Shown: positions 4,750-46,970 of the stretch, piece after piece
Layout: every line of letters starts with the position of its first letter
Position numbering within the stretch: position 1 is the first letter of the stretch
From: a virus
Taxonomy: Duplodnaviria; Caudoviricetes
Strand: one strand, 5' to 3'
Length of the DNA stretch: 55,116 nt
IMG/VR virus record: IMGVR_UViG_3300012930_000005
Span: 1-55,116 of that record
Made by a program: the position numbers and the translations under genes
The notes under the pieces: generated by a model
The model's input: only the letters and a program-made list of their open reading frames with translations
What the model was told of the DNA's origin: nothing
Database searches by the model: none

Positions 4750-5931
4750 ATGGCAGATCCGCTATTCAATGAACTTTCAGCGACGACAAAGGTGGATATT
4801 CGTAATGCCGTCGTCTGGAACAACTACTGGGTTGACACCCCACTGCAGGATCACCTGCGTCGTAATGGAGCTGTAGACCCGTTCCTGGGCGGCAGCTCAA
4901 TGCAGGAGCCGATTCTCTATGGCGGACCGGACGGTGGCGCAATCAACCCCGGACAGACCGTAACTGTAACGCGTAAGCAGATCGTTGCTGCGTTCCAGTT
5001 CATGCCAAAGGCGTATGCATCGTGGTTCTCTTACGATGACTTCGAAATGGCACCCGATGAGGGCGGCGTCATGAACAGCGGTGAGCCAGCAGCGGTTGAC
5101 CTCTACCAGGTATACGTCGAAGGTCTGACGAGCCGGTTGAACACGCTGAATGAGCTTGACTTCTTCCGTCACGGACAGGCTTCGGCCACCAATGGCGGCG
5201 GAGCCGGTGTGGCTGATGATCGTTCGCTCGCTATCAACGGAGCTGCTGAAGCTTGTAACGATGGATTCACCCCATCATGGGATGGAAACATCTTCACAAA
5301 CTACGGCGCTCAGGTTCGTAACGGCGCGGTCCAGAACACCATCAACTCCATCCCGTACTTCTTCGGAAACCCTGACGGTTCGGCCGGTCAGATCAGCTTC
5401 GAGGGAATGCTGGAGATGTACCAGGGCTCATTCGAGCGGCCTGACATCGGAGTAACGTCCAAGATTGGATATACGTACATTGCAGCGCTCTATCAGCGTC
5501 AGCAGCGTTACGATACGTCGATCACAAAGGGCGATGGAATCCGCTGGAAGGGTCTGCAGTTCGAGGATGCGATCATCTATGACGACTGGCTCACTCCTTC
5601 GGCAGTTGACCCCGGCTACTTGCCAACGTCGTTGGTGGGCTCGGTCGGCGGTCAGCCCAACCTCACCGGCTCCTTCCTCTCACCAGCGAATCCTTCGCCA
5701 GCATCTCACCTTCCGGCGAGTACGAACATCACCGTCGGCGAGACGCTCTGGTTTCTCCACGGCGCAAGCTGGAAGATGAGAGCGACGAACAAGAAAGCGT
5801 GGTTCTTCGGTATCCGCGAGACTCAGGCTTACGACAACGTGAGCATGAACGCGATCTACATGAAGTGGGCCGGTAACATCTACAGCCCGATACCACGTAA
5901 CAATCGTCAGGGCTACGGATTTACCAGCTAA
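4750..5931 (+). CDS. Major capsid protein
   Basis: 393 aa; position after scaffold; HK97-fold-like composition; strong codon bias. Confidence 0.82.
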   Translation: MADPLFNELSATTKVDIRNAVVWNNYWVDTPLQDHLRRNGAVDPFLGGSSMQEPILYGGPDGGAINPGQTVTVTRKQIVAAFQFMPKAYASWFSYDDFEMAPDEGGVMNSGEPAAVDLYQVYVEGLTSRLNTLNELDFFRHGQASATNGGGAGVADDRSLAINGAAEACNDGFTPSWDGNIFTNYGAQVRNGAVQNTINSIPYFFGNPDGSAGQISFEGMLEMYQGSFERPDIGVTSKIGYTYIAALYQRQQRYDTSITKGDGIRWKGLQFEDAIIYDDWLTPSAVDPGYLPTSLVGSVGGQPNLTGSFLSPANPSPASHLPASTNITVGETLWFLHGASWKMRATNKKAWFFGIRETQAYDNVSMNAIYMKWAGNIYSPIPRNNRQGYGFTS

Positions 5932-7168: not shown

Positions 7169-8173
7169 ATGGATATGGCGTTCATTGATATGTGGCGAGA
7201 GATAGCGATAGAACTTGGTCCGATGCCTGGTGCGCTCGCTCGAACGAAGGTCAATGAAGCTCTAGGATTGGTGTACGACGAGAACAGATGGAGCTTCCAG
7301 CTTGGTACGAGCGGATGGCTTACACCTGGTCTACTGGGACCGCAGGGAACGACAGGGACGAGCCCTGGTCTTATCACGATAGCTCCATACTCAAACCAGG
7401 TTGTCGGTGATCCTACAGCGGCTACAGCGTGGCAGAATCTAATCGGTCGGCCGTTCATCTCGGAGATGCAGTTCCGCATCCCAGAGTTCGAGCTATACGA
7501 CATCATCGCGTTCGACGGTGTAAACACGCTGACCCTCGATAGACCGTGGATGGAGCCGAACCAGTTGAATCAGGGGTACATGATCTACCAGGCGTACTTC
7601 CCTGTGCCGGTGCAGGACTTCAGATCGTTTATTGCGATTAGAGATTTCACGAATACGCGTAACCTCGACTTCTCAAAGACGACTCGCGCTGACATGGCTG
7701 TGATCGACCCGCAGCGTATCGTATTCCAGCAGCCGACGAGAGCAGTGCCATTCGATCAGGATCATCGTCCAAACAGTGCGACGCCCGGATGGATGCGTTA
7801 TGAGCTGTGGCCGCATCCTCTATCCCAGTTGCCGTACTCGCTGGCGTTCATGAGGCGTGGTCCACTGCTGGTGAATCCATCGGACATGGTCCCGTATCCG
7901 TTCACGGAGGAGATGATCAAGTGGAGAGGGAAGAGCGTCTCGTATCTCTGGAAGGAGTCACAGAAGGGCGTAGACATGCAACGAGGTGCAGGAGCGAACT
8001 GGACGTTCCTGTCTCAAGCGGCCGACAAGCAATACACAAAGCTGTTACGACAAGCGCAGAGCAACGATAGAGACTTGTACAACCTGTACTGGACGAAGCT
8101 GAGACGTAACGGATGGGGAGAGGTTGGTCCATTCTTCTCTTCGGATGGTCACAATCTAACCATCGGGGGATAG
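7169..8173 (+). CDS. Head-tail adaptor-like virion protein
   Basis: 334 aa; adaptor-like N-terminal helices and ELWPHP motif; synteny. Confidence 0.55.
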   Translation: MDMAFIDMWREIAIELGPMPGALARTKVNEALGLVYDENRWSFQLGTSGWLTPGLLGPQGTTGTSPGLITIAPYSNQVVGDPTAATAWQNLIGRPFISEMQFRIPEFELYDIIAFDGVNTLTLDRPWMEPNQLNQGYMIYQAYFPVPVQDFRSFIAIRDFTNTRNLDFSKTTRADMAVIDPQRIVFQQPTRAVPFDQDHRPNSATPGWMRYELWPHPLSQLPYSLAFMRRGPLLVNPSDMVPYPFTEEMIKWRGKSVSYLWKESQKGVDMQRGAGANWTFLSQAADKQYTKLLRQAQSNDRDLYNLYWTKLRRNGWGEVGPFFSSDGHNLTIGG

Positions 8174-8175
8174 GC

Positions 8176-11100
8176 ATGAAATTCCGCATCATCTTTGCGT
8201 TACTGATGCTTTCGGTGTTTGGAGGAGTCGCACACTCCCAGGCACAGATTCGATACAACGGGTTGTGCTCGGCAAATGGTCTTCAGGTCACAACGCAAGG
8301 ATTGAAGTCTACCGGATACTTTGAATCTGCTTATCCCAGGTGCTTGGTGCGTGTCTTCGTTCACGGATCGAGCACGTTGGCGCCTATCACGACAAACGGG
8401 ACGGTACCCCTACCCAATCCATTCACGGCGGAAGCAGATGCCTCGTTCGCCTTCTATGCCTCGAATACCACTCACTACGACATCACGATGAGCGGTGCTG
8501 GCATGGTGACGACCACAATCTCTGATGTAGCGCTTCCGGGTGCTGGTGGTGGAGGTATCCTTCCACAGTCGGCCCCATTGCAGCCAGGTAACGCCCTGGG
8601 GAGCTACGACGCCACAACTGGACTGTTTACCTACACACCGGCCTCAGGAGGCGGAGGAGCCCCTGCAGGAAGCGTTCTGGACATACAAATCAAGAGCACA
8701 GCGACGACATTCGGGAATGTAGCTGGACTGGCGGCAATTCCGAACGGAGGTCTGGGAGTCGGTTTGAACAATCCTACGAACCCAGACCTTACCTTCGGGT
8801 ACTTCAGCGCCAAGAATCCGAACGGAAACTGCAACGTCAAGCTGTGGGACAGTAGCAGCACGTCCACGGGTAACGGGTTCAACAACGCGCTTGGAGCCGG
8901 TTGCAACAACCTGCAGCAGTTTCCAGACGACGTAAAGTCGGATGATCTACCGGCAGGACAGACTTACCCTGGACCGCAGGTATGGCAGCATCACGAAGGA
9001 CCAGGCTACAACTGGAACCAGTACTACAACTCGATTCTGGCGAAGAGAGAGCACTACAACCTGAGTACACGCATCTACCCTGATTCGGCCGGAACAGAGC
9101 AGATCACAGAAGACTTCGCACCAGGTTGGAACTTCGGCAACGTCTCGAACGTGACTGGAAACCTCTGGTCTACGACGAAGATGATGAACAGCGTCACCCA
9201 GTTCCTAAATGCCGGTATCAAACAGATGTGGGCAGGAGTGAACTTCTGTAACGGTGGAGGCGATTGCTCGACAAGCTACACCTACACTCACTGCAACGGA
9301 TGGACACCTGACGCCTCGGGTGAAGGTTGCGGAGGAAGCACGCAGCAAGTCTTCGAAGAGAACATTGATTACATCCGTGCGATCACCTCTTCTTCGACTC
9401 TGCCGGATGGATCTACGCAGATCATCTCGAACATCTTGGATGGAAACCCAGGAGCCCAGAGAATCGCTCTGAGCTTGGCAGCGATCAACGTTGTTGCTAT
9501 CGCGTCAGGAGAAACACCGTACAACGGGTTCACGGAGTACTCTCTGCAGTCAGGAACGTTGACCGGATCTGCTGGCATCTTGGCCGGTGTAGTGACTGCA
9601 ACGAACTCGGACTATGCGAACACGCAGACCTTCTACCGAAGCGATACGGCGACGATGGCGGTCGTCACAACAGCTATCCCAGTAGGAACTCAGTACGGAT
9701 GCGCGTTCGGATCATTCTTCAGCGAGAACGTAACCTTCACCGGGATAAGCAATCCTTCTGGAGGGAACCAGACCTTGACGTTTCGTCACCGATACCCATA
9801 CAACGGTCAGACGATGATGGCTGCTGGCAACTGCCAGTACTTGTCAATGTCTCTGGATGAGGGTGCGTACGGTCTACGCGAGTCGTTCCCGATGATATCA
9901 ATCGATGCGACTCACTTCGTATCGCAGCGCTATGGATATGGTTCTCACACACCGCTGACAAAGATCTTCCAGGTTGGCTCTGCAAAGCTTCCAGATCCAG
10001 CATTCCCCACGGTGGATGTACAGAGACTAGCGAACGGAGACACGTATGTAACGGTGAATCCGCAGGTAGCAGGTTCCTACGTACCAGGGACACAGCTCAC
10101 CACGTTCTGTTCGTCTGATTCATCCTTCAACGGACAGTTCACGGCCGCATTTGTATCACCCGTGGCCGACGCCGGTGGAAACTACTACATCCAATATCCG
10201 ACGAGCGCAACGAGCGTAGCGTCCTGCCCTGCAGCGAACGCAACCATCACTCTCTTCGGTCTGAACGGAGGTCACATCTACAACGGAGCTGAAGTCATCC
10301 ACGTAGACCTGAGCACCGGCCAGGACGTGTTGACGCTCGAACAGAACAGCACAGCATGGGTACCGGGTCAGCAGATCGACGTAGCGCATGGGATGAACCT
10401 CCAGATGCACAACGCAACGGATCAGACTACGCAGCTCTCGGTAGACTCTTCTGGCGGTAACAACGTGTTCACGCACTTCGTGAATGGAACCCAGGCACAG
10501 CTTGAACAGTGGGGCGGCATGAACGCTCTCGATCTAGCTCTGATGCGTGGTAACGGTGGACAGCGGCCGGTACCGAACTACATGGTGTTCCACATGCCCA
10601 TCAACAACCTCTTCAACGTGGTTGATTCACCGGACCACGGGTCTACGAAGTTCATCTTCGCTTGCTATGGATTCACCAGCGATCTAGCAACGAACTGCGG
10701 TAGGACACCAGACTTCAACCTCTTCAACTTCGAAGGTAAGGCGGCGAACGGAAACCTGGTTGGTACGACGATGACCTTCTCCCCGTCAACGTCCAGGTTC
10801 GCAATCAGAGCGCAGCTCATGGACTTCTCTTCTACGAACTTCCAGGTGGACGAAAACGTCGGCGTAAAGATCGTTCTCCCACCGACTGCCGTCAACACTG
10901 TACCTCTCACGTTGACGAGTCAGCAGACGAATGCAGGTAATGCCGGTATCAGCATGACGTTGAGTGCAGAGCACGACTTGCTGATGGGATACTTCGGACC
11001 TGGCAATGGAGCAGGGCTCGCAGGGACATACGGATTCTTCGATCAGAACAACCAGTGGTTCTCATGGAACTCGAATCAACTTAGTGATTTCTGTTTGGGT

Positions 11101-11334
11101 ACACCGTTGTCAGGTGGTAACGTAGCAGCTTGCACGGGCGCTCCGTGGATCTTCAACAAGTCTGCGAACACTACAACGCTCACTGGAACGTTGGCCGCAG
11201 GAACAGCAGTTACAGCCCCGAATCTGATCCAAGTTACGAGTGCAGTACAGCCGAGCGGTTGCTCGCTAACTGCAGGAAAGTTCGTTCAGGCAACCATCAA
11301 CGGAGTGTCTGTAAACATACCGGTGTGCAACTAA
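8176..11334 (+). CDS. Large tail spike/fibre-like protein with N-terminal signal peptide (1052 aa)
   Basis: Start MKFRIIFALLMLSVFGGVAHS|Q; spike N-domain motif PLPNPFTA..FAFYA..HYD; T/S/G/N-rich, many Cys. Confidence 0.75.
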   Translation: MKFRIIFALLMLSVFGGVAHSQAQIRYNGLCSANGLQVTTQGLKSTGYFESAYPRCLVRVFVHGSSTLAPITTNGTVPLPNPFTAEADASFAFYASNTTHYDITMSGAGMVTTTISDVALPGAGGGGILPQSAPLQPGNALGSYDATTGLFTYTPASGGGGAPAGSVLDIQIKSTATTFGNVAGLAAIPNGGLGVGLNNPTNPDLTFGYFSAKNPNGNCNVKLWDSSSTSTGNGFNNALGAGCNNLQQFPDDVKSDDLPAGQTYPGPQVWQHHEGPGYNWNQYYNSILAKREHYNLSTRIYPDSAGTEQITEDFAPGWNFGNVSNVTGNLWSTTKMMNSVTQFLNAGIKQMWAGVNFCNGGGDCSTSYTYTHCNGWTPDASGEGCGGSTQQVFEENIDYIRAITSSSTLPDGSTQIISNILDGNPGAQRIALSLAAINVVAIASGETPYNGFTEYSLQSGTLTGSAGILAGVVTATNSDYANTQTFYRSDTATMAVVTTAIPVGTQYGCAFGSFFSENVTFTGISNPSGGNQTLTFRHRYPYNGQTMMAAGNCQYLSMSLDEGAYGLRESFPMISIDATHFVSQRYGYGSHTPLTKIFQVGSAKLPDPAFPTVDVQRLANGDTYVTVNPQVAGSYVPGTQLTTFCSSDSSFNGQFTAAFVSPVADAGGNYYIQYPTSATSVASCPAANATITLFGLNGGHIYNGAEVIHVDLSTGQDVLTLEQNSTAWVPGQQIDVAHGMNLQMHNATDQTTQLSVDSSGGNNVFTHFVNGTQAQLEQWGGMNALDLALMRGNGGQRPVPNYMVFHMPINNLFNVVDSPDHGSTKFIFACYGFTSDLATNCGRTPDFNLFNFEGKAANGNLVGTTMTFSPSTSRFAIRAQLMDFSSTNFQVDENVGVKIVLPPTAVNTVPLTLTSQQTNAGNAGISMTLSAEHDLLMGYFGPGNGAGLAGTYGFFDQNNQWFSWNSNQLSDFCLGTPLSGGNVAACTGAPWIFNKSANTTTLTGTLAAGTAVTAPNLIQVTSAVQPSGCSLTAGKFVQATINGVSVNIPVCN

Positions 11335-12779
11335 TGAAGAAGCTCCTACAATTCGCGTTCCTGATCACCTTCTCTTCCCTGTGTTATGCCCAGAACTTGA
11401 ACTACAACGGAAGCTGCAGCCAGGGCTCAGTCAAAGCTCTTACCAGTGGTTCTCCATCATCGAACTACCTCCAAAGCGCTGTACCGGGATGCTTGGTTAG
11501 CGTATACGTCCATAGTTCACAGGTACTAGCGGCGATCTTTATCGAAGATGGAACGCCGAAACCGAATCCCTTTACCGCACAGAGCAACGCTGCGTTCAAC
11601 TTCTACGCATCGTCTAATTCGCACTACGACGTAACGATGCGAGCGTCTGGGATGACGACCACGACACTCACAGATGTCTCGCTAGGATCTGGAGGAGCTG
11701 GAGGTTCAGTTACGAGCGTGAGCGGTGGCGTAGGTGGTGGCATGACGGTGAACGTAGCTAATCCCACCACAACGCCTAACATCACAGTTGCCGCAGATGG
11801 TAGTCACTACATCCCGAACACCGGCGACGTGTCGAATTGGAATGGCAAGGTGAATCGTACTGGCGATACGATGACGGGACCGCTGAACATAGCAGCCTTC
11901 CCAGTCAATTCGACGGAAGTAACGAACAAGAACTATGTGGATACGCTGAACGCACAGGCTCAAGCTGCAGCGGCCGCAGCTCAGGCAACAGCGAATGCAG
12001 CTCAACCACAGTCACAAAAGAACCAGGTGAATGGATATGCAGGACTGGATGCAACAGCTCGCGTACCACGCGCCTTCCTTCCCAACGCTATCGCATACAC
12101 CGATACAGCGAACGCATTCAGTCAAAGCCAGTCGATAACAGGAAACCTCTCTGCATCGGGAGATGTGAAAGGTGGAACAGTTTCAGGTGGAGCGCTTGGG
12201 AACGTTAGGATGATGAACACTCCTATCGGGACTGCTATAAGCTGTTTGACGCTGAACGGATCGTGCTCTACCGCAGGTGTTGGTGCAGTAGGTTTGATCT
12301 ACAACAACACGGTTCCGAATGATCTTGTACTCGCCTATGGAGTGTCAGGACATCTATCGATTCAAAATAACGGAGTCGGAGCGGTCAATCAATTTATCTT
12401 CGACAGTGTAGGAAACCTGACTATACCTGGCGTTGTTGGTGGAGGATTCATTTCTTCCGGTACGACTACCGGACCTATCGCCATCTCCGCTTTCAACTGT
12501 GGACCGGGAAACCAGAACTGCAGGAATTACACCGGACAGTTCACAACCCAATTCAACGGTACCGGCGCTGCAGGGCAGGTAGGTACGATCACGTTCGCTC
12601 CAGCAGCACTCAGTACACAGATGTGTCTGGTGAACGGAGTCACGAGCACTCCGAATATCGCAGCGCTCGATATAGCTGTGTCTGGAACCACGAATACCGT
12701 TTATACGTTCAACCTCGTCAACGGAGCGGCAAACACTGCAGGGGCAATCCTTACCGTAAAGTACATCTGTTCGTTCTAG
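11334..12779 (+). CDS. Tail fibre-like protein with signal peptide (481 aa)
   Basis: MKKLLQFAFLITFSSLCYA|Q; N-domain paralogous to 8176; fibre motifs GDTMTGPL, TNKNYVD, NGYAGLD; TAATG coupling. Confidence 0.78.
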   Translation: MKKLLQFAFLITFSSLCYAQNLNYNGSCSQGSVKALTSGSPSSNYLQSAVPGCLVSVYVHSSQVLAAIFIEDGTPKPNPFTAQSNAAFNFYASSNSHYDVTMRASGMTTTTLTDVSLGSGGAGGSVTSVSGGVGGGMTVNVANPTTTPNITVAADGSHYIPNTGDVSNWNGKVNRTGDTMTGPLNIAAFPVNSTEVTNKNYVDTLNAQAQAAAAAAQATANAAQPQSQKNQVNGYAGLDATARVPRAFLPNAIAYTDTANAFSQSQSITGNLSASGDVKGGTVSGGALGNVRMMNTPIGTAISCLTLNGSCSTAGVGAVGLIYNNTVPNDLVLAYGVSGHLSIQNNGVGAVNQFIFDSVGNLTIPGVVGGGFISSGTTTGPIAISAFNCGPGNQNCRNYTGQFTTQFNGTGAAGQVGTITFAPAALSTQMCLVNGVTSTPNIAALDIAVSGTTNTVYTFNLVNGAANTAGAILTVKYICSF

Positions 12780-12805
12780 AGCATCTGAAGTTATAGGGAA
12801 TCGAC

Positions 12806-14440
12806 ATGAATATAAAAAATACAATACGATGCACACTTCTTCTCTTATTCGGCGGTCTGGAAAGTTACGCGCAGAGCAATCCTAAGCCAGCAGGAGCATA
12901 CATCAACGCTGGTGCAGGATGGACACCATTACTCGGTACAGCAACAGCCGGAGCGATCACGTATAACCCTGTACCTACAGCTTTGTTCATCTACAACACC
13001 AGCTTGGCTAAATGGGTTCCTTGGGATGGAACGAGCAGTGGTGGAGGAGGCACAGGGACAGTAACGAGTGTCTCTGCCACCGGTAATGCATTGGTGGCGG
13101 TGAACGTCACCGACCCAACGACGACACCATTGATTGTATTGACGCTTCCGAACCAAAACGCCAATAGCGTTTTCGGGAACTTTACAGGATCGAGCGCGGT
13201 TCCTACTTTTTCGTCTACCCCGCAATTCAACGGCGCAAATATCACCGGTTTGAACTTCACTCAAATCGGCGGCTCGGCCTCTATTGCACAGCTCCCGGCC
13301 ACGGTAATCCAGACAGTGGGAACTGCTACTGCCAATGTGATTCTCAAGCGAACCACTAGCAATACTGCGACCGACTCATCCTTGACAGACAACGGGACAA
13401 CCATAACGACGACTGAGGCTATAAATGCAGGAGCGGTAGCTACCACTGGCAACATCACGGCGCAAGGAACGGTGAACTCTACAGCCAACACAAGTCCGGC
13501 AAGTATCACAAACTCCGGTGTGGCCCTATCGGCATCTCCTACGGTTGCCGATGTTGTCTATTACGATGCAAGTCGAACTACGAATAACCACGTTGCAGAC
13601 GCTCTCTGGTTGAGTGGTTCATATTCGCTTCGATTCAAAAGCGATGACCAAGCCAGTGCAACTACCTTCTTCGCGGCTGCAGGCGGTCAGGCATCTGGCA
13701 TAACAGGTATCACCTCAAGTAGCGGCACAGGAACGTGGACGCACACTGGACCGTTTACGGCTACAGGGAACATCACAGCACCATCCTTCATCGGCAACGC
13801 TTCGTCAGCTACGAACCTACCTGGTGGGCTCCTGGGCTCCATGCCCTATCAGTCGGCCGCGTCAACTACTGCAATGCTCGCTGGAAGCACCTCTTCAGCG
13901 ATTGCAGTGCTCACTCAGCAAGGCAACGGAACGATCAGTGCAATTCCAGCATGGAACGCTGCTACCGGAACAGGTTTGGTAGTATTCGCAACTTCACCAA
14001 CCATCGCAACACCTACGCTTACAGGAACCACGAACAGTGGACCGATAACAGCGAACGGAGCCCTGACGACAAACCTGAGCTTGGTATCCACTCGGGCGAC
14101 CGGCACAGCTCCTCTGACCGTAACCTCCGTCACTCCAGTAGCGAATATGGTAGTGGCGAAACATCCAACCGCTCTGTATTGCGGAACGGCAGCGGCTTGT
14201 ACCGCAACCGCCGCACTCAACAGTCAGATGGTCTATGGATCAGCCACACTCACAACTGGAGCGGTAACAGTCACGGGAATATCACCAGCGTTCGCAGATA
14301 CAGCGTATATCTGCACGGTTACTTCGAAGACAACATCTAGCGCAGCAATCTTCAATGTACAAAACGTATCGACATCCTCTTTCACCATCAACGGGAGCGG
14401 TTCCGCTGGTGACGTAGTAGGTTACATTTGCGTTCGTTGA
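12806..14440 (+). CDS. Tail fibre-like Thr/Ala/Gly-rich protein with signal peptide
   Basis: MNIKNTIRCTLLLLFGGLESYA|Q; fibre repeats (TGTGLVVFATSPTI); C-terminus VGYICVR. Confidence 0.72.
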   Translation: MNIKNTIRCTLLLLFGGLESYAQSNPKPAGAYINAGAGWTPLLGTATAGAITYNPVPTALFIYNTSLAKWVPWDGTSSGGGGTGTVTSVSATGNALVAVNVTDPTTTPLIVLTLPNQNANSVFGNFTGSSAVPTFSSTPQFNGANITGLNFTQIGGSASIAQLPATVIQTVGTATANVILKRTTSNTATDSSLTDNGTTITTTEAINAGAVATTGNITAQGTVNSTANTSPASITNSGVALSASPTVADVVYYDASRTTNNHVADALWLSGSYSLRFKSDDQASATTFFAAAGGQASGITGITSSSGTGTWTHTGPFTATGNITAPSFIGNASSATNLPGGLLGSMPYQSAASTTAMLAGSTSSAIAVLTQQGNGTISAIPAWNAATGTGLVVFATSPTIATPTLTGTTNSGPITANGALTTNLSLVSTRATGTAPLTVTSVTPVANMVVAKHPTALYCGTAAACTATAALNSQMVYGSATLTTGAVTVTGISPAFADTAYICTVTSKTTSSAAIFNVQNVSTSSFTINGSGSAGDVVGYICVR

Positions 14441-14461
14441 CAAAGTACGACGGGGCACAAC

Positions 14462-14803
14462 ATGAAAAACCGAATCTTACTGAGTATTTGCATCATCATT
14501 ATCTACGCCTTGGGTCGAATAGCTTTCCGTCCACTGGAGAAGGTCTTAGCTGACTCTCCGAACGCGGATCTAGTAGGCTCTCTCACGGTAGCCTCTGGAG
14601 CGACAACAGCAGCAACACCATATACGTTCGCTCATGCTGGAACACACATATGCGTGATATCAACACAGACGGCGACAGCGAGCGTTCTTTCTGCATCTGG
14701 ACCGCTCGTACCGCAAGTAACATCAACGACTCTCAATGTTCAATTTGCTAACGCCGTGGCATCAGCTACGGTCGTGGGGTATATCTGTCATGGAACGTTC
14801 TAG
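14462..14803 (+). CDS. Small exported fibre-tip-like domain protein
   Basis: N-terminal hydrophobic leader; C-terminal VGYICHGTF similar to the 12806 C-terminus. Confidence 0.68.
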   Translation: MKNRILLSICIIIIYALGRIAFRPLEKVLADSPNADLVGSLTVASGATTAATPYTFAHAGTHICVISTQTATASVLSASGPLVPQVTSTTLNVQFANAVASATVVGYICHGTF

Positions 14804-15725
14804 ACTTATCAAAATCTCGGTTGGTTTCATCTTCTTCGCGTTCGCTCTCGCGCTCACGATACCCCTCCATTCACAGCAAGGTATTCTCAGTACTCGAACC
14901 ATCGGAAGCATCGGCGTAAATGCCGGTCAGCCTGTCTACAGCGTTGCTTGCACGACGAGCGTCTACCTCTGCGTTATACCGACAGATGGAACCCAGGCCT
15001 CTGCTGGTCTAGCGCTCGATACAGGTAATCCTGGCGAGCTCACAACCATCGTGACCTACGGACGTGCTCCGTGTGTCTATGACAACACCCCGATTCAAGG
15101 AAACATCGCTATCGTCGGTAATGGGGTTTGCCACGACAGTGGATTTACGAACCTCGCCAACATCTCGAACACACAGCTTGTATCAGGGAAGATCCTTCAA
15201 GTTCTGAGCCCCACCACGGCGCTCACGAACTTCCTCTGCCCTGGTTGTACAGGGAACCTGATCGAAGTCTCAACGATCAAACAGGCAGATCTGACAACGT
15301 ATATTCAGGCACACCAGCTTACGAGTGCCGGTCCTACTGGGCCAACGGGTGCGACAGGTGCTACTGGAGCAACTGGAACTACCGGCGCAACGGGTCCAGC
15401 GGGAGTCCTTTACTACAACTCGGCCGGTGCAGTAGCGAATATGAAGTGCTTCAATTCGGGAGCGTTCACTACCACCACATCAGGAACCTGGACGATGAGC
15501 TTCTCAGCCGCCAGCATAACTACGATTCGGAAGGTGAATGCGATGCCTATTTCACCGGCGACAACCAACGCCACGGATCAATATGTCGCCATCGTGAATC
15601 CAATCTCAGGATCTACTATTTCAGGCAAGGTTGTGTCTGGAACAGGAATCCTCTTACTCGGAGCTTCTTCGCTTATTCCGATAACGGTCGCTGCTACCAT
15701 TTATGTGGAAGTTTGCGGGACGTAA
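14790..15725 (+). CDS. Collagen-repeat fibre protein with signal peptide
   Basis: MERSRLIKISVGFIFFAFALALTIPLHS|QQ; eight GXY triplets at 15330-15404; Cys pairs. Confidence 0.72.
   Translation: MERSRLIKISVGFIFFAFALALTIPLHSQQGILSTRTIGSIGVNAGQPVYSVACTTSVYLCVIPTDGTQASAGLALDTGNPGELTTIVTYGRAPCVYDNTPIQGNIAIVGNGVCHDSGFTNLANISNTQLVSGKILQVLSPTTALTNFLCPGCTGNLIEVSTIKQADLTTYIQAHQLTSAGPTGPTGATGATGATGTTGATGPAGVLYYNSAGAVANMKCFNSGAFTTTTSGTWTMSFSAASITTIRKVNAMPISPATTNATDQYVAIVNPISGSTISGKVVSGTGILLLGASSLIPITVAATIYVEVCGT
15330..15404 (+). repeat. Collagen-like Gly-X-Y repeat
   Basis: GPTGPTGATGATGATGTTGATGPAG. Confidence 0.9.
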
Positions 15726-15803: not shown

Positions 15804-16091
15804 TTGGCAAATTCAGAGAATCCTTCTATCGGCGAAATTCTCACGCGGCTTGGTGATCTAGAGGTTGAACAGGCCACTTTCGCAGCTCATCAGGAATGGG
15901 CGACCGGGAGAATAAAGAAGCATGACAAGGATCTCTACGAGGGTAATGGTTTGCCAGCTATAACTCAAAGGCTGTCAACCCTGGAGATGATCGCAGGGAT
16001 GGCTAAAGCTATGGTGGGACTCGCAGCGCTGAATACGATTGCGCTGTTCGTGTTCCTTTTCAAATTCTGGGTGAGTAAAGGGGGGAAGTAA
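15804..16091 (+). CDS. Holin-like protein (coiled-coil plus C-terminal TM helix)
   Basis: TTG start; single C-terminal TM segment; upstream of the endolysin. Confidence 0.5.
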   Translation: MANSENPSIGEILTRLGDLEVEQATFAAHQEWATGRIKKHDKDLYEGNGLPAITQRLSTLEMIAGMAKAMVGLAALNTIALFVFLFKFWVSKGGK

Positions 16092-16685: not shown

Positions 16686-16715
16686 GCGAAGATGATAGTT
16701 GAAGCGGGGAAGAAA

Positions 16716-17222
16716 ATGGATATTACCAGCGAAACTCGTTTGTCGCAAGTTGACCCTGTTCTGGAGAAGAAGGTTCACATTGCGGTCGCACAGATCGCTC
16801 TCGAACACGGTATTGAGGTTCATGTTGCACAAGCTCTCCGTTCTGTAGCGGACCAGGATGCGCTCTACGCCAAGGGAAGGACGGTACTCAAAGATGCAAG
16901 CGGGAAGGCAGTCCATATCGTCACGTACGCGAGAGGCGGATACAGCTCGCACAACTTCGGTTTGGCAGTCGATCTTGTCCCAGGGGTACTTGGCAAGATC
17001 GTTTGGACTCCCAACTGGGACTCCGAAGATCCAGCCTATGGGTATATGGCAAGCGCTTGCAAAGCCGCAGGGTTGAAGTGGGGCGGTGACTGGATAGGAA
17101 AAAAGAAAGACTTGCCTCACTTCTACATCGGACCGGACACCCCAACTGATCTAATGCGTCTAGCCCTGAACGTCCACGGTTTGCAGTATGTGTGGGACCA
17201 GGTAGCGGCAGGGACTTACTAA
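16716..17222 (+). CDS. Endolysin, M15-family L-Ala-D-Glu peptidase
   Basis: RS..DQDALYAKGRT, SSHNFGLAVD, WGGDW...DLPHF motifs. Confidence 0.9.
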   Translation: MDITSETRLSQVDPVLEKKVHIAVAQIALEHGIEVHVAQALRSVADQDALYAKGRTVLKDASGKAVHIVTYARGGYSSHNFGLAVDLVPGVLGKIVWTPNWDSEDPAYGYMASACKAAGLKWGGDWIGKKKDLPHFYIGPDTPTDLMRLALNVHGLQYVWDQVAAGTY

Positions 17223-17609: not shown

Positions 17610-18956
17610 ATGCCCTACACGTACCTGACCTTCGCACAGGCTCGGCAGCAACTCGCATCTAAGCTAGCAGATGAGGGAAACGTTAGATGGACCGACACCG
17701 AAAATAGGTTCTACATCTACGAAGCGTTGAGAATGTGGAACTGCCTTACTGCTACGTGGAAGACGGACTGGTCTTTCAACTTCAATACCGGTACTACCGT
17801 TACATGGATCAATTCCGGCACCGGACTTCCAGGCAATCCTTCTCCTCGTCTGCAGCAAGTCACCTACGGCCAGCTCTATCAGATGATGCAGTACCATCTC
17901 CAGCAGCCAGCTTCCGGTGAAGTGTGGACAGGAACGACTCAGTTCCAGATGGTAGATCTGATCGGAGCGGTGAATCGCCATCGTGCAGAGATTCAACAGC
18001 AGACAGCTTGCAACACGATCATCTTCAATCTTCCAGCAGTGTCAGATAGCAGAGCTGCGGTATTGCCGGACACGATACTTGAGGTCATCCGAGCACGATG
18101 GGTACCTGCGTTCCCGACCGATGGACCGCCTGTAACGTTGGTGCGCGATGACCGTCTTGGTGAGATGTACTACGAAGCCGGTTACGTACAAGCTCCGGCG
18201 GGTATTCCGAGTGACTACGATGTGTCGAGCGTTGCTCCGCTGCAATTCTTCGTAGACATCGCTCCGAACGTACCTGGTCGATACGAGATTGTTGCTATCC
18301 AGGCGAGCCCGGACTCAACATCACCTCCGACCACTACCGGAATCTTCATACCGGATGACTTCATCTGGGTTCTGAAGAATGGAGCGATGGCAGACATCCT
18401 CGGTCGTGAGTCAGAAGCTACCGACCGGCCGCGTGCGGAGTACTTCCAGAAGCGCTACCAGGACGGCCTCAAGCTCCTGCAGAACACCCCGTGGATACTG
18501 ACGGCGTACATCAACAACGTTCCTGTCGATACGCCCTCTCTGGTGGAGCAAGACGGCTACGCTGCTGAGTGGGATTCGAAGCCAGCAACGCTGCAGGAGA
18601 TTATCACCACGGGTATCGACTTCTTCGCTGTTGTGCCGGACATCAACAATCCGACAAGCGTAACGCTTTCCATGCTTGGCAATGCACCGTTACCAGTGTT
18701 GGACTCAGATCCTATCCAGGTAAGCCGTGATGTGCTGGAAGCGATCATCGATTACGCACAGTTTCTCGCCACGATAAAGATCGGTGGTGCGGAGTTCCAG
18801 TCAGCACTACCGCTAGAGGCTAACTTCATCAGGCTTGCTTCTATGACGAACGGCCGTCTGGTAAAGACAGGCGCATTCATCGATGTTCTGTATAAGCAAG
18901 GCGCACGGCAGGAAGACTATCAAGAGCGGTTCTCTACGAAGACACAGGAAGAATAA
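17610..18956 (+). CDS. Tail adaptor/tubular protein (two adaptor-like repeats)
   Basis: 448 aa; adaptor-type N-terminus (WTDTENRFYIYEAL); directly before the nozzle. Confidence 0.6.
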   Translation: MPYTYLTFAQARQQLASKLADEGNVRWTDTENRFYIYEALRMWNCLTATWKTDWSFNFNTGTTVTWINSGTGLPGNPSPRLQQVTYGQLYQMMQYHLQQPASGEVWTGTTQFQMVDLIGAVNRHRAEIQQQTACNTIIFNLPAVSDSRAAVLPDTILEVIRARWVPAFPTDGPPVTLVRDDRLGEMYYEAGYVQAPAGIPSDYDVSSVAPLQFFVDIAPNVPGRYEIVAIQASPDSTSPPTTTGIFIPDDFIWVLKNGAMADILGRESEATDRPRAEYFQKRYQDGLKLLQNTPWILTAYINNVPVDTPSLVEQDGYAAEWDSKPATLQEIITTGIDFFAVVPDINNPTSVTLSMLGNAPLPVLDSDPIQVSRDVLEAIIDYAQFLATIKIGGAEFQSALPLEANFIRLASMTNGRLVKTGAFIDVLYKQGARQEDYQERFSTKTQEE

Positions 18957-23203: not shown

Positions 23204-24178
23204 ATGGCGACAACGCCAGCCATCCCGCCAGCGTATTGGCCTAACACAGACGGTAAGGCAGAGCCGGAGGTTAGCCGCGCTCTGCGTCTCGTCTATGACT
23301 CGCTGAACGACCACAATAACGCTATCTCTGAACTCAAGTCTCAGGTGGATCTAAAGAACGGTGTAACCCCTGTAACCCCCCCTGTAACCCCTCCAGCCAC
23401 AGGCGGGGGTGGAACATCTCCAAACACCAATCTTCACCCTATCAATCTTCAGAGTTCGGATTACACGCTACAGAACGGGGATAACAACGGCCTTGTGTCG
23501 ATGAACTCTGCGGCCGCTACGACGATTACCCTGAACGCCGCCATGACCATCGGTTCTATGGTCACGCTTGAGAACATCAACACCGGACCGGTAGCGATCA
23601 CACCCTCATCTGGAACGATCAACGGGCAGACCTCGATCAGCCTCGCTCAGAACCAGGGATGCATCGTCTTCTTCGATGGGACGAACTGGTGGGGTCTAAC
23701 GACGCCGAACCCAGTAACCTTCCAGACGAACGGAGCCCTGAACGGTTCGCAAGTCCTACTCAACCTGATAGCCGGTTCAAACATCACCCTGGCCGACAAC
23801 GGTTCTGGTGGGGTCACGATCACAGCAACCGGAAGTGGTAGCGCTCCAACGATCACCACGAATGCTAATGGAACAGCCGTGGCGTTCTCCGGTGGATACG
23901 TACACCAGTTTGGAGCAAGTTCGGCATCTCCGACCGGCGTGGCTAAGTCAACGGTTGCGGTTACCTTCCCCATCACATTCGGCGGGATACCAAGGGTAGT
24001 TTGTAACGTGGACAACAACGCCGATAGTTTCGGAACGAGCGTCTTCTCCTGCTACCCTTCATCTATCACCGCAAACGGCTTTATAGCCAACTTCGCTTGT
24101 GGTGTCATCATTGGTGGATCTGGTGCAGGAAACATCACTAACGTAGTACATGCGAACTGGGAAGCTGACTTCGCATAA
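23204..24178 (+). CDS. Tail fibre protein (no signal peptide)
   Basis: DYTLQNGDN / FDGTNWW fibre domain; C-terminal gp53-like tip (HQFG...VTFPITF...ITANGF...WEA). Confidence 0.72.
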   Translation: MATTPAIPPAYWPNTDGKAEPEVSRALRLVYDSLNDHNNAISELKSQVDLKNGVTPVTPPVTPPATGGGGTSPNTNLHPINLQSSDYTLQNGDNNGLVSMNSAAATTITLNAAMTIGSMVTLENINTGPVAITPSSGTINGQTSISLAQNQGCIVFFDGTNWWGLTTPNPVTFQTNGALNGSQVLLNLIAGSNITLADNGSGGVTITATGSGSAPTITTNANGTAVAFSGGYVHQFGASSASPTGVAKSTVAVTFPITFGGIPRVVCNVDNNADSFGTSVFSCYPSSITANGFIANFACGVIIGGSGAGNITNVVHANWEADFA

Positions 24179-39728: not shown

Positions 39729-40073
39729 ATGCATGTTCTGATGCTATTTCTATTCGCATTCACAATTCCACCGGCAGCAAAGGTTATTGCAGTAGCGGTG
39801 GTCGTGTACGGGGTACTTCAGGGTTTGAAGAAGGCTCCCGTATTCAGCACTTTTCTCTCTGGTACCTGGGCTCTAGTATTCAACATTGCCTTCTCAGTCT
39901 TAGGCGTGTTGGTAGTAGCGGCACCCGGTACTTTGTATAGCGTGGACACCTTGAACGACATCTTTATGGTTATTGGAACCGCTCTAGCCGCAGCCGGGAT
40001 ACACGGCACTACAAAGACTCTGGCACCAGCGACACCTGCACCCGTAGTACCAGCAACGCCACCTACGCCGTAA
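39729..40073 (+). CDS. Membrane protein (3-4 TM), holin-like
   Basis: Hydrophobic helices; AAAGIH near the C-terminus; RBS aggag. Confidence 0.65.
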   Translation: MHVLMLFLFAFTIPPAAKVIAVAVVVYGVLQGLKKAPVFSTFLSGTWALVFNIAFSVLGVLVVAAPGTLYSVDTLNDIFMVIGTALAAAGIHGTTKTLAPATPAPVVPATPPTP

Positions 40074-40083
40074 AAGGAGCAGT

Positions 40084-40449
40084 ATGAAGAAAGTTACAGC
40101 AGCATTCGCCAGCCTTATGCTGTGCGTCCTGTTCATCACAGGATGCTCAGGATTCGAGCGGACGACACTCCAGACGCTCTCTGCGTCTAAGGTAACTATC
40201 GATGGAGCCCATGCAGACTATGAGTCTGGAAAGCTTCCTCACACACAGGCCGTCAACGACGTGATCACCAAAGCTATTGCGATTCAGAAGACCGCAGTAG
40301 ATGCGATGGTGGTCTATGAGCAGATGAAGATAACAGGACAGACTTCAGCTCTGCCGGAGCAAGAAACGGTCGTTCTGGTAGCTCTCGTCAACCTTCCAAC
40401 CATCCTCACCGACGTAAAAGGGCTTTACTCAACCGGAGGTGCTAAGTGA
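40084..40449 (+). CDS. Lipoprotein
   Basis: Signal MKKVTAAFASLMLCVLF followed by lipobox ITG|C. Confidence 0.78.
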   Translation: MKKVTAAFASLMLCVLFITGCSGFERTTLQTLSASKVTIDGAHADYESGKLPHTQAVNDVITKAIAIQKTAVDAMVVYEQMKITGQTSALPEQETVVLVALVNLPTILTDVKGLYSTGGAK

Positions 40450-41967: not shown

Positions 41968-42696
41968 TTACAAAGCTGGTGACAATTGAACGTTTTCAAC
42001 AACTTGCACATCGTGTTTTTGTAATTGACTTGGAATCTGTTGCCCTGCGGCGAATCGGATAAGAATCTTACCGACAGTCGCAGCCTTCCATTCACCCCCA
42101 TTTCTCGCATATTGACCAACGTAATTGAGGTTCTTTGCGATATCGAGATAGGTCAAACCTTCGTCTCTCATGCGCCGCATCCAGTCCAAGGTTGGACGCT
42201 CATCCTCGTTCGCGCCGTATGGCTTCCTTCCTTCGCAGCGACCGTGGGATATCTTGTGGCGCTGCCGAGCCCCACGAAGCCGTAGAACGATTACGCTCTT
42301 CTCGTATTCAGCGATGCATCCGAAGATCTGGCGTACCAGAACGCGGGAAGGATCAGAGGAGCAAAGATCAGGTTCAGCGGTAGAGAGAAGCTCATAGCCG
42401 CGCTTCTGCATATCGGCTATCAGAGTCTCCTGAACCATCAGGTCACGTGCGAGTCGGTCCAGCTTCTCGATCAGGACGACCTTTACATCGTTGTCCTCTA
42501 GATCCACGAAGAGGCTTTGTAGAGCCGGACGGTCGTCCAGCTCCTTTGTGCCGGAGACGCCCTCTTCGCGGTAAGTCTTGACTATCTCGATACCGCGTTG
42601 AGCAGCGTACGCTTCACACGCCAAGTACTGACGTCGGAAGCCGTCACCCTCAACCTGTCCGGCACCTGAGACGCGGAGGTATACGTAAGCCTTCAT
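41968..42696 (-). CDS. Serine recombinase (resolvase-type catalytic domain plus short DNA-binding domain)
   Basis: YLRVS (catalytic Ser), EEGVSG, RPAL, KLDRLAR, GRKPYG. Confidence 0.92.
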   Translation of the reverse strand: MKAYVYLRVSGAGQVEGDGFRRQYLACEAYAAQRGIEIVKTYREEGVSGTKELDDRPALQSLFVDLEDNDVKVVLIEKLDRLARDLMVQETLIADMQKRGYELLSTAEPDLCSSDPSRVLVRQIFGCIAEYEKSVIVLRLRGARQRHKISHGRCEGRKPYGANEDERPTLDWMRRMRDEGLTYLDIAKNLNYVGQYARNGGEWKAATVGKILIRFAAGQQIPSQLQKHDVQVVENVQLSPAL

Positions 42697-43292
42697 TCTT
42701 CACCTCGTGCTTTCTTGAGTGCTGCTGAGGCTCGTGCGCGTATTTCTTCAGGATTCCACAGAGATTGACCTTGGCCGACTTCTTCGAGGAAACTCAGGCA
42801 CTCAGTCAAGGATTCGTACATCTCAGGAGCCGCTGCAGCCATAAGGCGATCTTTGGGTTCAGGCTGTAGCTTGAACACGACATTGCGTGCGTGCAGTACT
42901 CCCTTCGACAAAGCATCGCAAGCGCTGTTCTGGGCTCTTGGTATCCACGACATCTTCACTCGCGGCTTGTTGATCATGTAGAGGTACAGCGCCTCTTGAT
43001 AGTGCGGGAAGTATAGTCCACCTTTGGCTTTCCACTTACGCTGAACCTGCATGATGACAAGCTTTGAGTCGCCGTAGATGTGGATGTTGCCGACGTACTT
43101 TACGGCCTCTGTAAGAGCAGCGATGAATCCTCGATACTCCGCAACGTTGTTGGACATCTTATCGCCTACGCCGACGTAACCACCTTCTGCGTAGACTTCC
43201 ACTCCGTCAACCTTGACGAGAGCACCCCATGATGCGTGACCACCTGGGTTACGTGGTTCACACGCTCCATCGAACCAAGCTTCAATACTCAT
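42693..43292 (-). CDS. rnhA: Ribonuclease HI-family protein
   Basis: WFDGAC..NPG, SNNVAEY, GDSKLV, WIPRAQN..CD. Confidence 0.9.
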   Translation of the reverse strand: MSIEAWFDGACEPRNPGGHASWGALVKVDGVEVYAEGGYVGVGDKMSNNVAEYRGFIAALTEAVKYVGNIHIYGDSKLVIMQVQRKWKAKGGLYFPHYQEALYLYMINKPRVKMSWIPRAQNSACDALSKGVLHARNVVFKLQPEPKDRLMAAAAPEMYESLTECLSFLEEVGQGQSLWNPEEIRARASAALKKARGEE

Positions 43293-45992: not shown

Positions 45993-46540
45993 TAGCGACA
46001 CTTCGTAGCCAGTTCACACAACCACTCGGCTAACAATGGCGGTGTAGCCTCTCGTTCTCTCTTCGTGACTTCGAGCCGGCTCTTATCGGAGGAAGCTATA
46101 ACGTGAGTCGCATATCCAAGGGTGAGAGGCCAACTAGGGACATCTTCAGGAGAGCAACCAACGATGTAAAGCCAAGTCGCCTTCTCTGCTTTGTGGCCGA
46201 ACCAATATTGAAGTATCGGAAGTGTCCAGCCGCCATAGATATCGAAGTTTCCAGGTAAAGGGAGTCGTTGATCTTCCCACAGCTTGGAGCCCTTGGGATG
46301 CTCCAAAACGCCGCCATTCTCGCGCACCATCCGAACGGCGAAGCGTGCCAGGTCCATCTCGTCCACTCGCGGGTTAGCAAAGTGTCTAAGACGGCCCCAG
46401 GCTCGGCAAGGTGGATGAGCGATACATGGATTACCGTTTCGCCAATTGCGCGCATCACGCTCGATATCCCATACGTCACACTGCGGCATCGTCTTATAGA
46501 CGCTGTCGGAGCGTGCGAATAGGACGGTGATCTTATCCAC
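45992..46540 (-). CDS. Short C5 cytosine methyltransferase-like protein
   Basis: IAHPPC (motif IV), VLEHP (motif VI-like), Q.WFGH..EKATWLY, RE.TP..LAEWL. Confidence 0.68.
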   Translation of the reverse strand: MDKITVLFARSDSVYKTMPQCDVWDIERDARNWRNGNPCIAHPPCRAWGRLRHFANPRVDEMDLARFAVRMVRENGGVLEHPKGSKLWEDQRLPLPGNFDIYGGWTLPILQYWFGHKAEKATWLYIVGCSPEDVPSWPLTLGYATHVIASSDKSRLEVTKREREATPPLLAEWLCELATKCR

Positions 46541-46970
46541 GTTCAGCCGTCCTTTCTGCACGTCTAAGCAGCTTCCACGCGGGTATGCCGAGAGCGTCTC
46601 CAAACCGCAATAGAGACTCTAGATTAGGTTCAACGAGTCCACCTTCGACTCTTGTGACATAAGAGCGAACGACGCCCATCTTCTCTGCTAACTGGCGCTG
46701 ATTGAGCTTTGCCAGTTCACGCGCAAGCTTGATGGTTTGACCGATGTTGATCAGAGCTACAGGCTTAGAGCGCTTCGCGTTACGCGCTTTAGGCCGTGAA
46801 AGAGAAGAAACGTCAGAGAGAGCCGCAACTCTATTCGCAACGTGCTCTATGCGTTCTGCAAGCGTTCTCGGCATGACATAGCCGAAACGCTGATTATATG
46901 GAGCACCCTGCCACGGTGGGACAGGACGCAATAGGTTCTCGCTTGGCGCGTAAGTATCAATCTTGCTCAT
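46533..46970 (-). CDS. XRE-family HTH regulator
   Basis: IKLARELAKLNQRQLAEKMGVVRSYVTRVEGGLVEPNLESL. Confidence 0.88.
   Translation of the reverse strand: MSKIDTYAPSENLLRPVPPWQGAPYNQRFGYVMPRTLAERIEHVANRVAALSDVSSLSRPKARNAKRSKPVALINIGQTIKLARELAKLNQRQLAEKMGVVRSYVTRVEGGLVEPNLESLLRFGDALGIPAWKLLRRAERTAERG

Follow-up and report, generated by a model that had tools for sequence, protein, structure and literature searches.

In the textbook account, tailed phages are assembled wholly in the reducing cytoplasm of the host, and the tailspikes and pyocin fibres used for comparison below have, to our knowledge, no leader and fold in that compartment. Here, we analyse five consecutive plus-strand genes, F1 to F5, that fill positions 8176–15725 of the IMG/VR virus record IMGVR_UViG_3300012930_000005 (Caudoviricetes; a soil phage whose record is complete at 55,116 bp and has direct terminal repeats, analysed at full length and called the window) and encode fibre-like proteins with N-terminal export leaders and many cysteines. 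The cysteines of these proteins and their relatives are conserved, tend to even numbers, are gained and lost in pairs and depend on the presence of the leader. We consider it likely that F1–F5 are receptor-binding fibres or tips of a Tunturi-like podovirus of Acidobacteriaceae, made as Sec pre-proteins, stabilized by periplasmic disulfides and docked late on the particle.

Phage proteins with Sec leaders include g3p and g8p of filamentous phages and the spanins, and periplasmic disulfides occur in g3p and in the outer spanins. Filamentous phages assemble at the membrane, whereas spanins are lysis proteins and not virion parts of tailed phages. Tailspikes and the R2 pyocin fibre resemble F1–F5 in joining a conserved N-terminal anchor to a variable distal part, and their C-terminal folds align with our model of the F4 tip, although below the level that would prove kinship. 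Judged by architecture, the nearest functional analogue is the MAT fibres of Bdellovibrio bacteriovorus that, in the available part of their description (PMC10769870), have a signal peptide, a conserved beta-rich N-domain (~130 aa), shafts and diverse tips, several with disulfides. The likeness is of architecture only, as MAT fibres are encoded by bacterial chromosomal genes instead of a phage structural operon and sit on the predator vesicle. Our literature searches, together with the accessible portions of PMC5723332, PMC13001222, and PMC5026251, turned up no tailed phage whose tail fibres are described as having leaders. New here are the conservation tests of the tip and the N-domain, the contrast of leader-bearing and leaderless proteins and the link to a cultured phage–host pair.

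In the cultured-phage collection, F2 was matched by Tunturi_1 and Tunturi_2 only (residues 1–114, 38.5% identity), described in the available part of PMC11924767 as podoviruses of the acidobacterium Tunturiibacter psychrotolerans X5P2. The window and Tunturi_1 (PP887698) share the gene order of portal, major head protein, gp11-like protein and then a leader-bearing block, gp12–gp16 in Tunturi_1, with identities of 28% for the portal, 32% for the head protein, 30% between gp11 and the product of 7169–8173, and ~40% for the N-domain of gp12, which keeps both of its cysteines. Given the same gene order and the identities of 28–40%, the window phage is thus a distant Tunturi-like podovirus, with a host probably in the Acidobacteriaceae. 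The mature forms of gp12, gp13, and gp14, of which the record labels the first two hypothetical and the third a tail spike, contain 20, 10, and 20 cysteines. On the other hand, the distal parts and tips of the Tunturi_1 proteins are unrelated to those of the window, and gp16 has a single mature cysteine. As the same design is found in the cultured Tunturi 1 and 2, the idea is open to bench testing on T. psychrotolerans.

The five genes belong to the structural module, flanked on one side by the head genes and on the other by those for lysis and the adaptor, in synteny with gp11–gp16 of Tunturi_1. F1 (8176..11334) encodes a fibre or spike of 1052 aa with a leader at residues 1–21 (8176–8238), an N-anchor pair C31/C56 (YNGLCS...YPRCLV; codons 8266–8268 and 8341–8343), the loop CNGGGDC and a tip pair C1029/C1051 (11260–11262 and 11326–11328) near its C-terminus NIPVCN. 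F2 (11334..12779) is a 481-aa fibre with a leader at residues 1–19 (11334–11390), the N-anchor pair C28/C53 (YNGSCS...VPGCLV; 11415–11417 and 11490–11492), loops C304/C311 and C389/C396, including CGPGNQNC, and the tip pair C431/C479 (12624–12626 and 12768–12770) before the C-terminus VKYICSF. The N-domains of F1 and F2 are paralogous (37% identity over 193 aa, E = 6e-31), and the two cysteines that the earlier note had placed at equivalent positions in them are indeed equivalent; all of the motifs that it quoted, the three short cysteine loops among them, are found in the translations. F3 (12806..14440; 544 aa; leader residues 1–22, 12806–12871; C-terminus VGYICVR) is a fibre with a second type of N-anchor (AYINAGAGWTPLLGTAT...), the loop C459/C465 (CGTAAAC) and the tip pair C503/C542 (14312–14314 and 14429–14431). 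F4 (14462..14803; 113 aa; C-terminus VGYICHGTF) consists of an atypical leader or signal anchor at residues 1–30 (14462–14551) and a tip domain alone, with the pair C64/C109 (14651–14653 and 14786–14788). In P0010 (166 aa) and L004_D (291 aa), which are related to F4, an F3-type anchor domain separates the leader from the tip, and F4 itself may either be a shortened version or act as a tip protein on its own. F5 (14790..15725) is a collagen-repeat fibre of 311 aa with a leader at residues 1–28 (14790–14873), pairs C54/C61, C95/C114 and C150/C153 and the tip pair C220/C309 (15447–15449 and 15714–15716) before its C-terminus YVEVCGT. Tentative matches to curated fibre families were found for F5 (PHROG tail-fibre, E = 3e-5 to 7e-3; Pfam Collagen at 19 bits, below the cut-off of 27.2) and none for F1–F4 in Pfam and PHROG.

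Leaders were called with a simple rule of our own, not a dedicated predictor, requiring a basic n-region and an uncharged hydrophobic core of at least 10 residues within the first ~35 aa. All five fibres open with a charged n-region that leads into an uncharged hydrophobic core, with small residues at positions −3 and −1, the leader of F4 being atypical, and at most 6 of the 61 other open reading frames (ORFs) of the window matched a loose form of the rule. The hand-set cleavage sites are AHS|Q in F1, CYA|Q in F2, SYA|Q in F3, and LHS|Q in F5. The F1 start codon lies 3 nt past the stop of 7169–8173 and that of F2 overlaps the F1 stop (TAATG); because of this coupling to upstream stops the fibre starts are well fixed, and as nothing separates the leaders from the conserved domains, an internal Met start skipping the leader is impossible. 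The leaders are alike in form but not in sequence in 114 of the 118 N-domain homologues described below and in the fibres of all relatives.

With the leader removed, F1–F5 contain 18, 8, 4, 2, and 8 cysteines, all even numbers. An even-number bias is a published indicator of disulfides in exported proteins, according to the available part of PMC2823432. Even counts were seen in 27 of 29 hand-curated leader proteins (binomial P = 8e-7), comprising the five of the window, relatives, gp12–gp16 of Tunturi_1 and neighbours of myovirus-type fibres in the contigs L007 and L009, while the other cysteine-containing ORFs of the window served as a control and split into 17 even and 23 odd. Cysteines make up 43 of the 2501 residues of the fibres (1.7%) in comparison with 133 of 13,791 (0.96%) in the rest of the genome, and the other virion proteins are nearly devoid of them: there are none in the scaffold-like protein, the 334-aa protein upstream and the 518- and 757-aa proteins, and one in the head protein. 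All five fibres have a cysteine within their last five residues, as does 1 of the 61 other curated ORFs (Fisher test, P = 6.7e-7). As F2, F3, and F4 have one tip domain in common, the number of independent tips is approximately three, for which the probability of this pattern is ~1e-4 to 6e-4. The cysteines form couplets, nine of them in F1 (permutation test of couplet spacing, p = 0.0025), and 12 of 23 tested proteins reached p < 0.01 for this spacing, among them all but one of the 12 that exceed 600 aa. The couplets span 6–45 residues, unlike CxxC metal sites; a single CPGC motif occurs in F5.

Of 8000 candidates scored with a profile of the F1/F2 N-domain, 550 proteins matched at E ≤ 1e-3. 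These proteins range from 197 to 2000 aa, and many contain beta-helix, pectate-lyase-like or collagen domains. We analysed a subset of 118, the 116 newly listed matches together with P0003 and P0005, and found both N-domain cysteines in 115. Two of the exceptions, P0069 (S/S) and P0094 (V/A), are the only 2 of the 118 to start directly at the domain with no leader; their starts are as called in the database, and the leaderless class was confirmed on DNA at other loci. Mature counts were even in 101 of the 118 homologues (binomial P = 5e-16) and in 77 of the 89 clusters formed at 50% identity, and a C-terminal cysteine occurred in 22 where 8 were expected (P = 1.5e-5). A lack of conservation among homologues, which the earlier note had named as grounds for giving up disulfides, is thus contradicted by the N-domain pair and equally by the tip cysteines, invariant in nine sequences. 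Kept in proteins whose distal parts differ, the N-domains resemble virion anchors. The N-domain had no Pfam match to the head-binding domain of the P22 tailspike (PF09008) at E ≤ 0.01, and a language-model look-alike cluster for PF09008, with a score of 0.79 only, is a lead. Viral contigs scanned with F2, F5 or P0094 as single queries yielded nothing new.

Alignments and a profile search placed the shared tip domain at 12522..12776 in F2, 14183–14437 in F3, and 14561–14800 in F4, all on the plus strand. A profile of the last ~85 residues of these proteins and their relatives gave 11 matches in 1.84 billion representatives. In the nine-member tip alignment, with identities of 14–47%, the two cysteines are the sole invariant columns. 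The AlphaFold2 (AF2) model of F4 residues 34–113 is a small beta-sandwich (pLDDT 85.6) that places C64 within an inner strand and C109 on the last one. The solved folds closest to it are the C-terminal domains of the tailspikes LKA1 gp49 (VIA Z 7.2), AP22 gp54 (7.0), and phi297 gp61 (7.0), aligned over 75–78 of the 80 residues, followed by K64-1 S2-4 (6.9) and Pam1 (6.6) and then by H-type lectins and the R2 pyocin fibre tip (5.7–5.8); Foldseek gave E values of 0.036 in PDB and 6e-3 in BFVD and a TM score of 0.63 to the R2 pyocin fibre. The model suggests that the tip domain is kin to the C-termini of tailspikes and pyocin fibres. As other explanations of the shared C-terminal domain, we considered sorting signals of the T9SS, PEP-CTERM and pilin types and rejected them, as there was no Pfam match and the fold points to fibre tips. 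One match of the tip profile, P0011 (780 aa; E = 3.4e-9 over nine stretches), consists of tandem repeats of ~90 aa with a cysteine pair in each and is probably an unrelated Ig-like surface protein.

Some relatives of the N-domain have no leader, and the two classes can be compared directly. Searching viral contigs with the N-domain profile gave 78 loci with 76 distinct N-domain ORFs called from DNA, 54 in which a hydrophobic leader separates the domain from an in-frame start and 22 in which the in-frame sequence upstream was short or polar. Among ORFs that cover the first cysteine column, 51 of 53 with a leader retain the N-domain pair but 1 of 11 leaderless ones does (Fisher test, P = 4.6e-9), and that single case, L084, has a borderline leader just below the threshold. 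The 44 complete leader-bearing ORFs contain 1.64 cysteines per 100 aa, 33 with an even count and 10 with a C-terminal cysteine, whereas the 19 complete leaderless ORFs contain 0.87 (Mann–Whitney test, P = 5e-5), 10 with an even count and none with a C-terminal cysteine. A similar contrast is seen in a small independent sample: among 14 generic fibres sharing a common fibre motif, 3 with leaders have 18–20 cysteines and 11 without have 0–4. A gp11-like gene, identified with a single-sequence search, lies upstream at 31 of the 54 leader-bearing and 16 of the 22 leaderless loci; the same N-domain in the same setting suggests that both classes use one shared docking site. The earlier note had argued that the cysteines support export independently of the leader sequences, and this comparison of sequences speaks for it.

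Close relatives show how the cysteines change. Full-length relatives are few, three for F2 and two for F1. The viral contigs L003 and L004 have a syntenic five-fibre block in which all proteins have leaders and even numbers of mature cysteines (4, 8, 14 or 16, 2, and 6). Between F2 and the 40%-identical P0002, all six cysteines of the common part are kept and one loop differs in length. F5 and a 60%-identical relative differ in three cysteine pairs, each present or gone as a pair: C95 + C114 and C150 + C153 are found in F5 alone and C132 + C167 in the relative alone. P0003 and P0010 each have one extra pair within otherwise conserved domains. L021 is a 99%-identical variant of the window phage; its F3 is nine residues longer and has an extra pair C86/C97, and its F1 tip is different but again has a cysteine pair ending two residues from the C-terminus. 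The regions 18–575 and 2050–3711 of L021 look like a recent exchange of tips inside one phage population.

Some leader-bearing proteins of related contigs include further domains. A GDSL/SGNH esterase lies within leader-bearing fibres of L004 (11323–15402), L003 (11315–14911) and P0012 (Pfam E = 9e-15, 2e-6, and 2e-8). In the myovirus-type contigs L009 (8183–13273) and L007 (8420–12510), a fibre with a leader and 18–20 cysteines comes after the baseplate genes and is followed by more leader-bearing ORFs, one of which, in L009, has an arabinofuranosidase B catalytic domain (E = 3e-30).

Taking F1–F5 as exported receptor-binding fibres, each would be translocated by Sec and cleaved behind an AxA-type site, so that most mature chains would start with Gln. 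The fibres would then fold oxidatively in the periplasm, where the host's Dsb-type machinery may form the bonds and where the trimers would also form. Cysteines would mostly pair with their nearest sequence neighbour: one disulfide would staple the N-anchor (C31–C56 in F1 and C28–C53 in F2), another would link the final beta-strand of the C-terminal beta-sandwich tip with one of its inner strands (C1029–C1051 in F1, C431–C479 in F2, C503–C542 in F3, C64–C109 in F4, and C220–C309 in F5), and the short loops would supply more staples. In the last and most speculative step, the holin would open the inner membrane and the oxidized fibres would dock by their N-domains on a particle built in the cytoplasm. 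A plausible docking platform, once the holin joins the compartments, is the product of 7169–8173, which resembles SU10-type adaptors by language-model features (0.98) and in its Atlas model (TM ~0.7). A complex prediction with this protein (32-row alignment) and the F2 N-domain (50-row alignment) scored 0.00 and speaks neither for nor against binding. The genome has two SU10-adaptor-like proteins, one encoded at 17610–18956 in the tail module and the other at 7169–8173 directly upstream of the fibres.

Several points weigh against this reading. We know of no route by which periplasmic fibres could join a cytoplasmic particle. Mature counts are odd in 17 of the 118 homologues, 2 of the 29 curated proteins (Tunturi gp16 and L009_245), and 11 of the 44 complete leader-bearing ORFs, and the leaderless P0069 and P0094 still hold eight cysteines each. 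The earlier note had pointed out the C-terminal cysteine: it is present in all five fibres but is not a universal mark of the class, missing as it is from L004_A, the first fibre of the relatives' block, and from 96 of the 118 homologues. The cleavage sites were placed by hand, and in F4 charged residues come after the hydrophobic core and the site, VLA|D, lies 12 residues past it; Gln at +1 (AxA|Q), which would permit an N-terminal pyroglutamate, is found in 24 of the 29 hand-set sites, a count with some circularity, as the sites were picked by eye. The AF2 model of the F1/F2 N-domain, based on a four-row alignment, had a pLDDT of 44.6 and was unusable, and the fold scores of the tip (Z 7.2; Foldseek E 0.036 and 6e-3) are under the usual bar. 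In the N-domain tree, computed with the cysteine columns masked, the leaderless forms are scattered among leader-bearing sisters and the best tree has nine leader changes, but the domain is short, well-supported branches force only two, and the paired test has too few pairs to reach significance; the independence of the changes is only partly shown. A term search of the main text of the Tunturi paper (PMC11924767) found no mention of signal peptides or mass spectrometry there.

The strongest rival explanation is that the proteins are exported and disulfide-bonded but never enter the virion, acting instead as free adhesins or polysaccharide-modifying enzymes that clear or mask the host surface polymer at lysis or serve the lysogen. 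The enzyme domains found behind leaders, GDSL esterase in L004_C, L003_C, and P0012 and arabinofuranosidase B in L009, would fit such a role, as would F4, a bare tip domain without an anchor. The fibre block also abuts the lysis genes, the tail module already has a leaderless candidate binding protein (23204–24178, with a weak H_lectin match), and the Bdellovibrio MAT fibres, as far as described in the accessible part of PMC10769870, are a case of cells exporting phage-fibre-like trimers. However, proteins confined to the periplasm would have no access to the cell surface, and the N-domains, conserved in front of variable distal parts, seem to act as virion anchors. In related phages, leaderless proteins that start with this N-domain occur in the same setting, downstream of a gp11-like gene at 16 of 22 loci in comparison with 31 of 54 for leader-bearing ones, and in the myovirus-type L007 and L009 the fibre with the leader is encoded behind the baseplate genes, where a tail fibre is normally found. 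We thus regard a role solely outside the virion as unlikely.

Considerably less probable still is that the N-terminal hydrophobic segments have no export role and the proteins fold in the cytoplasm, with cysteines that bind metal or become oxidized only once released into oxic soil. So far as is generally known, tailed phages assemble in the cytoplasm, disulfides can form in air after lysis, and F5 does have a CPGC motif. Against this, the leaders are kept in form though not in sequence throughout the homologues and the relatives' fibres, and the couplets are 6–45 residues apart and not of the CxxC type. Oxidation after lysis does not predict that loss of the leader is accompanied by loss of the N-domain pair, half the cysteine density and parity at the level of chance. 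That the cysteines reflect mere chance or composition in low-complexity, Ser/Thr/Gly-rich proteins, of which F2, F3, and F4 share a domain so that their C-terminal cysteines are not independent, is already contradicted by the homologue tests and hardly credible, given the Fisher test against the rest of the genome, the ~1e-4 to 6e-4 for three tips, cysteines as the sole invariant columns at 14–47% identity and the parity among 118 homologues.

Periplasmic folding of virion fibres, if true, would add a folding step outside the cytoplasm and a late attachment after the breach of the membrane and would bear on the evolution of host range in soil phages. For structural and applied work, such fibres would then be better expressed in the periplasm or in oxidizing strains, and annotation would change in that leader-bearing ORFs in structural modules should no longer be dismissed as nonvirion proteins. 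A generalization that we offer tentatively, and that may well fail, is a two-compartment assembly in phages of Acidobacteriaceae and other soil phages, in which heads and tails are made in the cytoplasm, Sec-exported fibres are added after the holin has acted, and leader and disulfides switch together.

The genome around the fibres includes a P22-like portal (914–2965), the major head protein (4750–5931), and the 334-aa leaderless and cysteine-free protein that adjoins F1 upstream (7169–8173, plus strand), a homologue of the "tail protein" gp11 of Tunturi_1. Directly 3′ of F5, 15804..16091 (plus strand) encodes a 95-aa protein with one C-terminal membrane helix, a holin candidate; it had no family match in the Pfam and PHROG scans, and a similar gene also comes after the fibre block of L004. 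It is followed by an endolysin of the peptidase M15/VanY type without a leader (16692–17222, plus strand; Pfam Peptidase_M15_4, E = 1.9e-11; PHROG endolysin, E = 1e-23) and the SU10-type adaptor of the tail module (17610–18956; Pfam E = 5e-5). Further content includes a DnaB helicase, RusA, a serine recombinase and an HTH regulator. The portal, head protein, endolysin, adaptor and replication and recombinase genes therefore indicate a tailed, probably temperate phage. The serine recombinase, an RNase H-like protein and the HTH regulator lie on the minus strand at 41968–43292 and 46533–46970, and this content suggests a temperate lifestyle. A search of genome contigs with the F5 alignment gave no match that would reveal prophage relatives, and the sole match of the F3-anchor alignment there, 21 aa in a Bacteroidales metagenome-assembled genome, was taken as chance. 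The window contains no tRNA genes that we could find, and no thiol oxidoreductase was matched by Pfam among the 54 scanned of its 66 curated ORFs. In the tail module, 23204–24178 encodes the leaderless 324-aa protein noted above, whose H_lectin match (E = 3.5e-4; 21.1 bits, cut-off 24) makes it a possible second binding protein, folded in the cytoplasm. Finally, a small protein with an N-terminal membrane anchor (39729–40073) is followed by a lipoprotein-like protein with the leader end LFITGC (40084–40449), and the two form a candidate spanin pair 23 kb from the endolysin.

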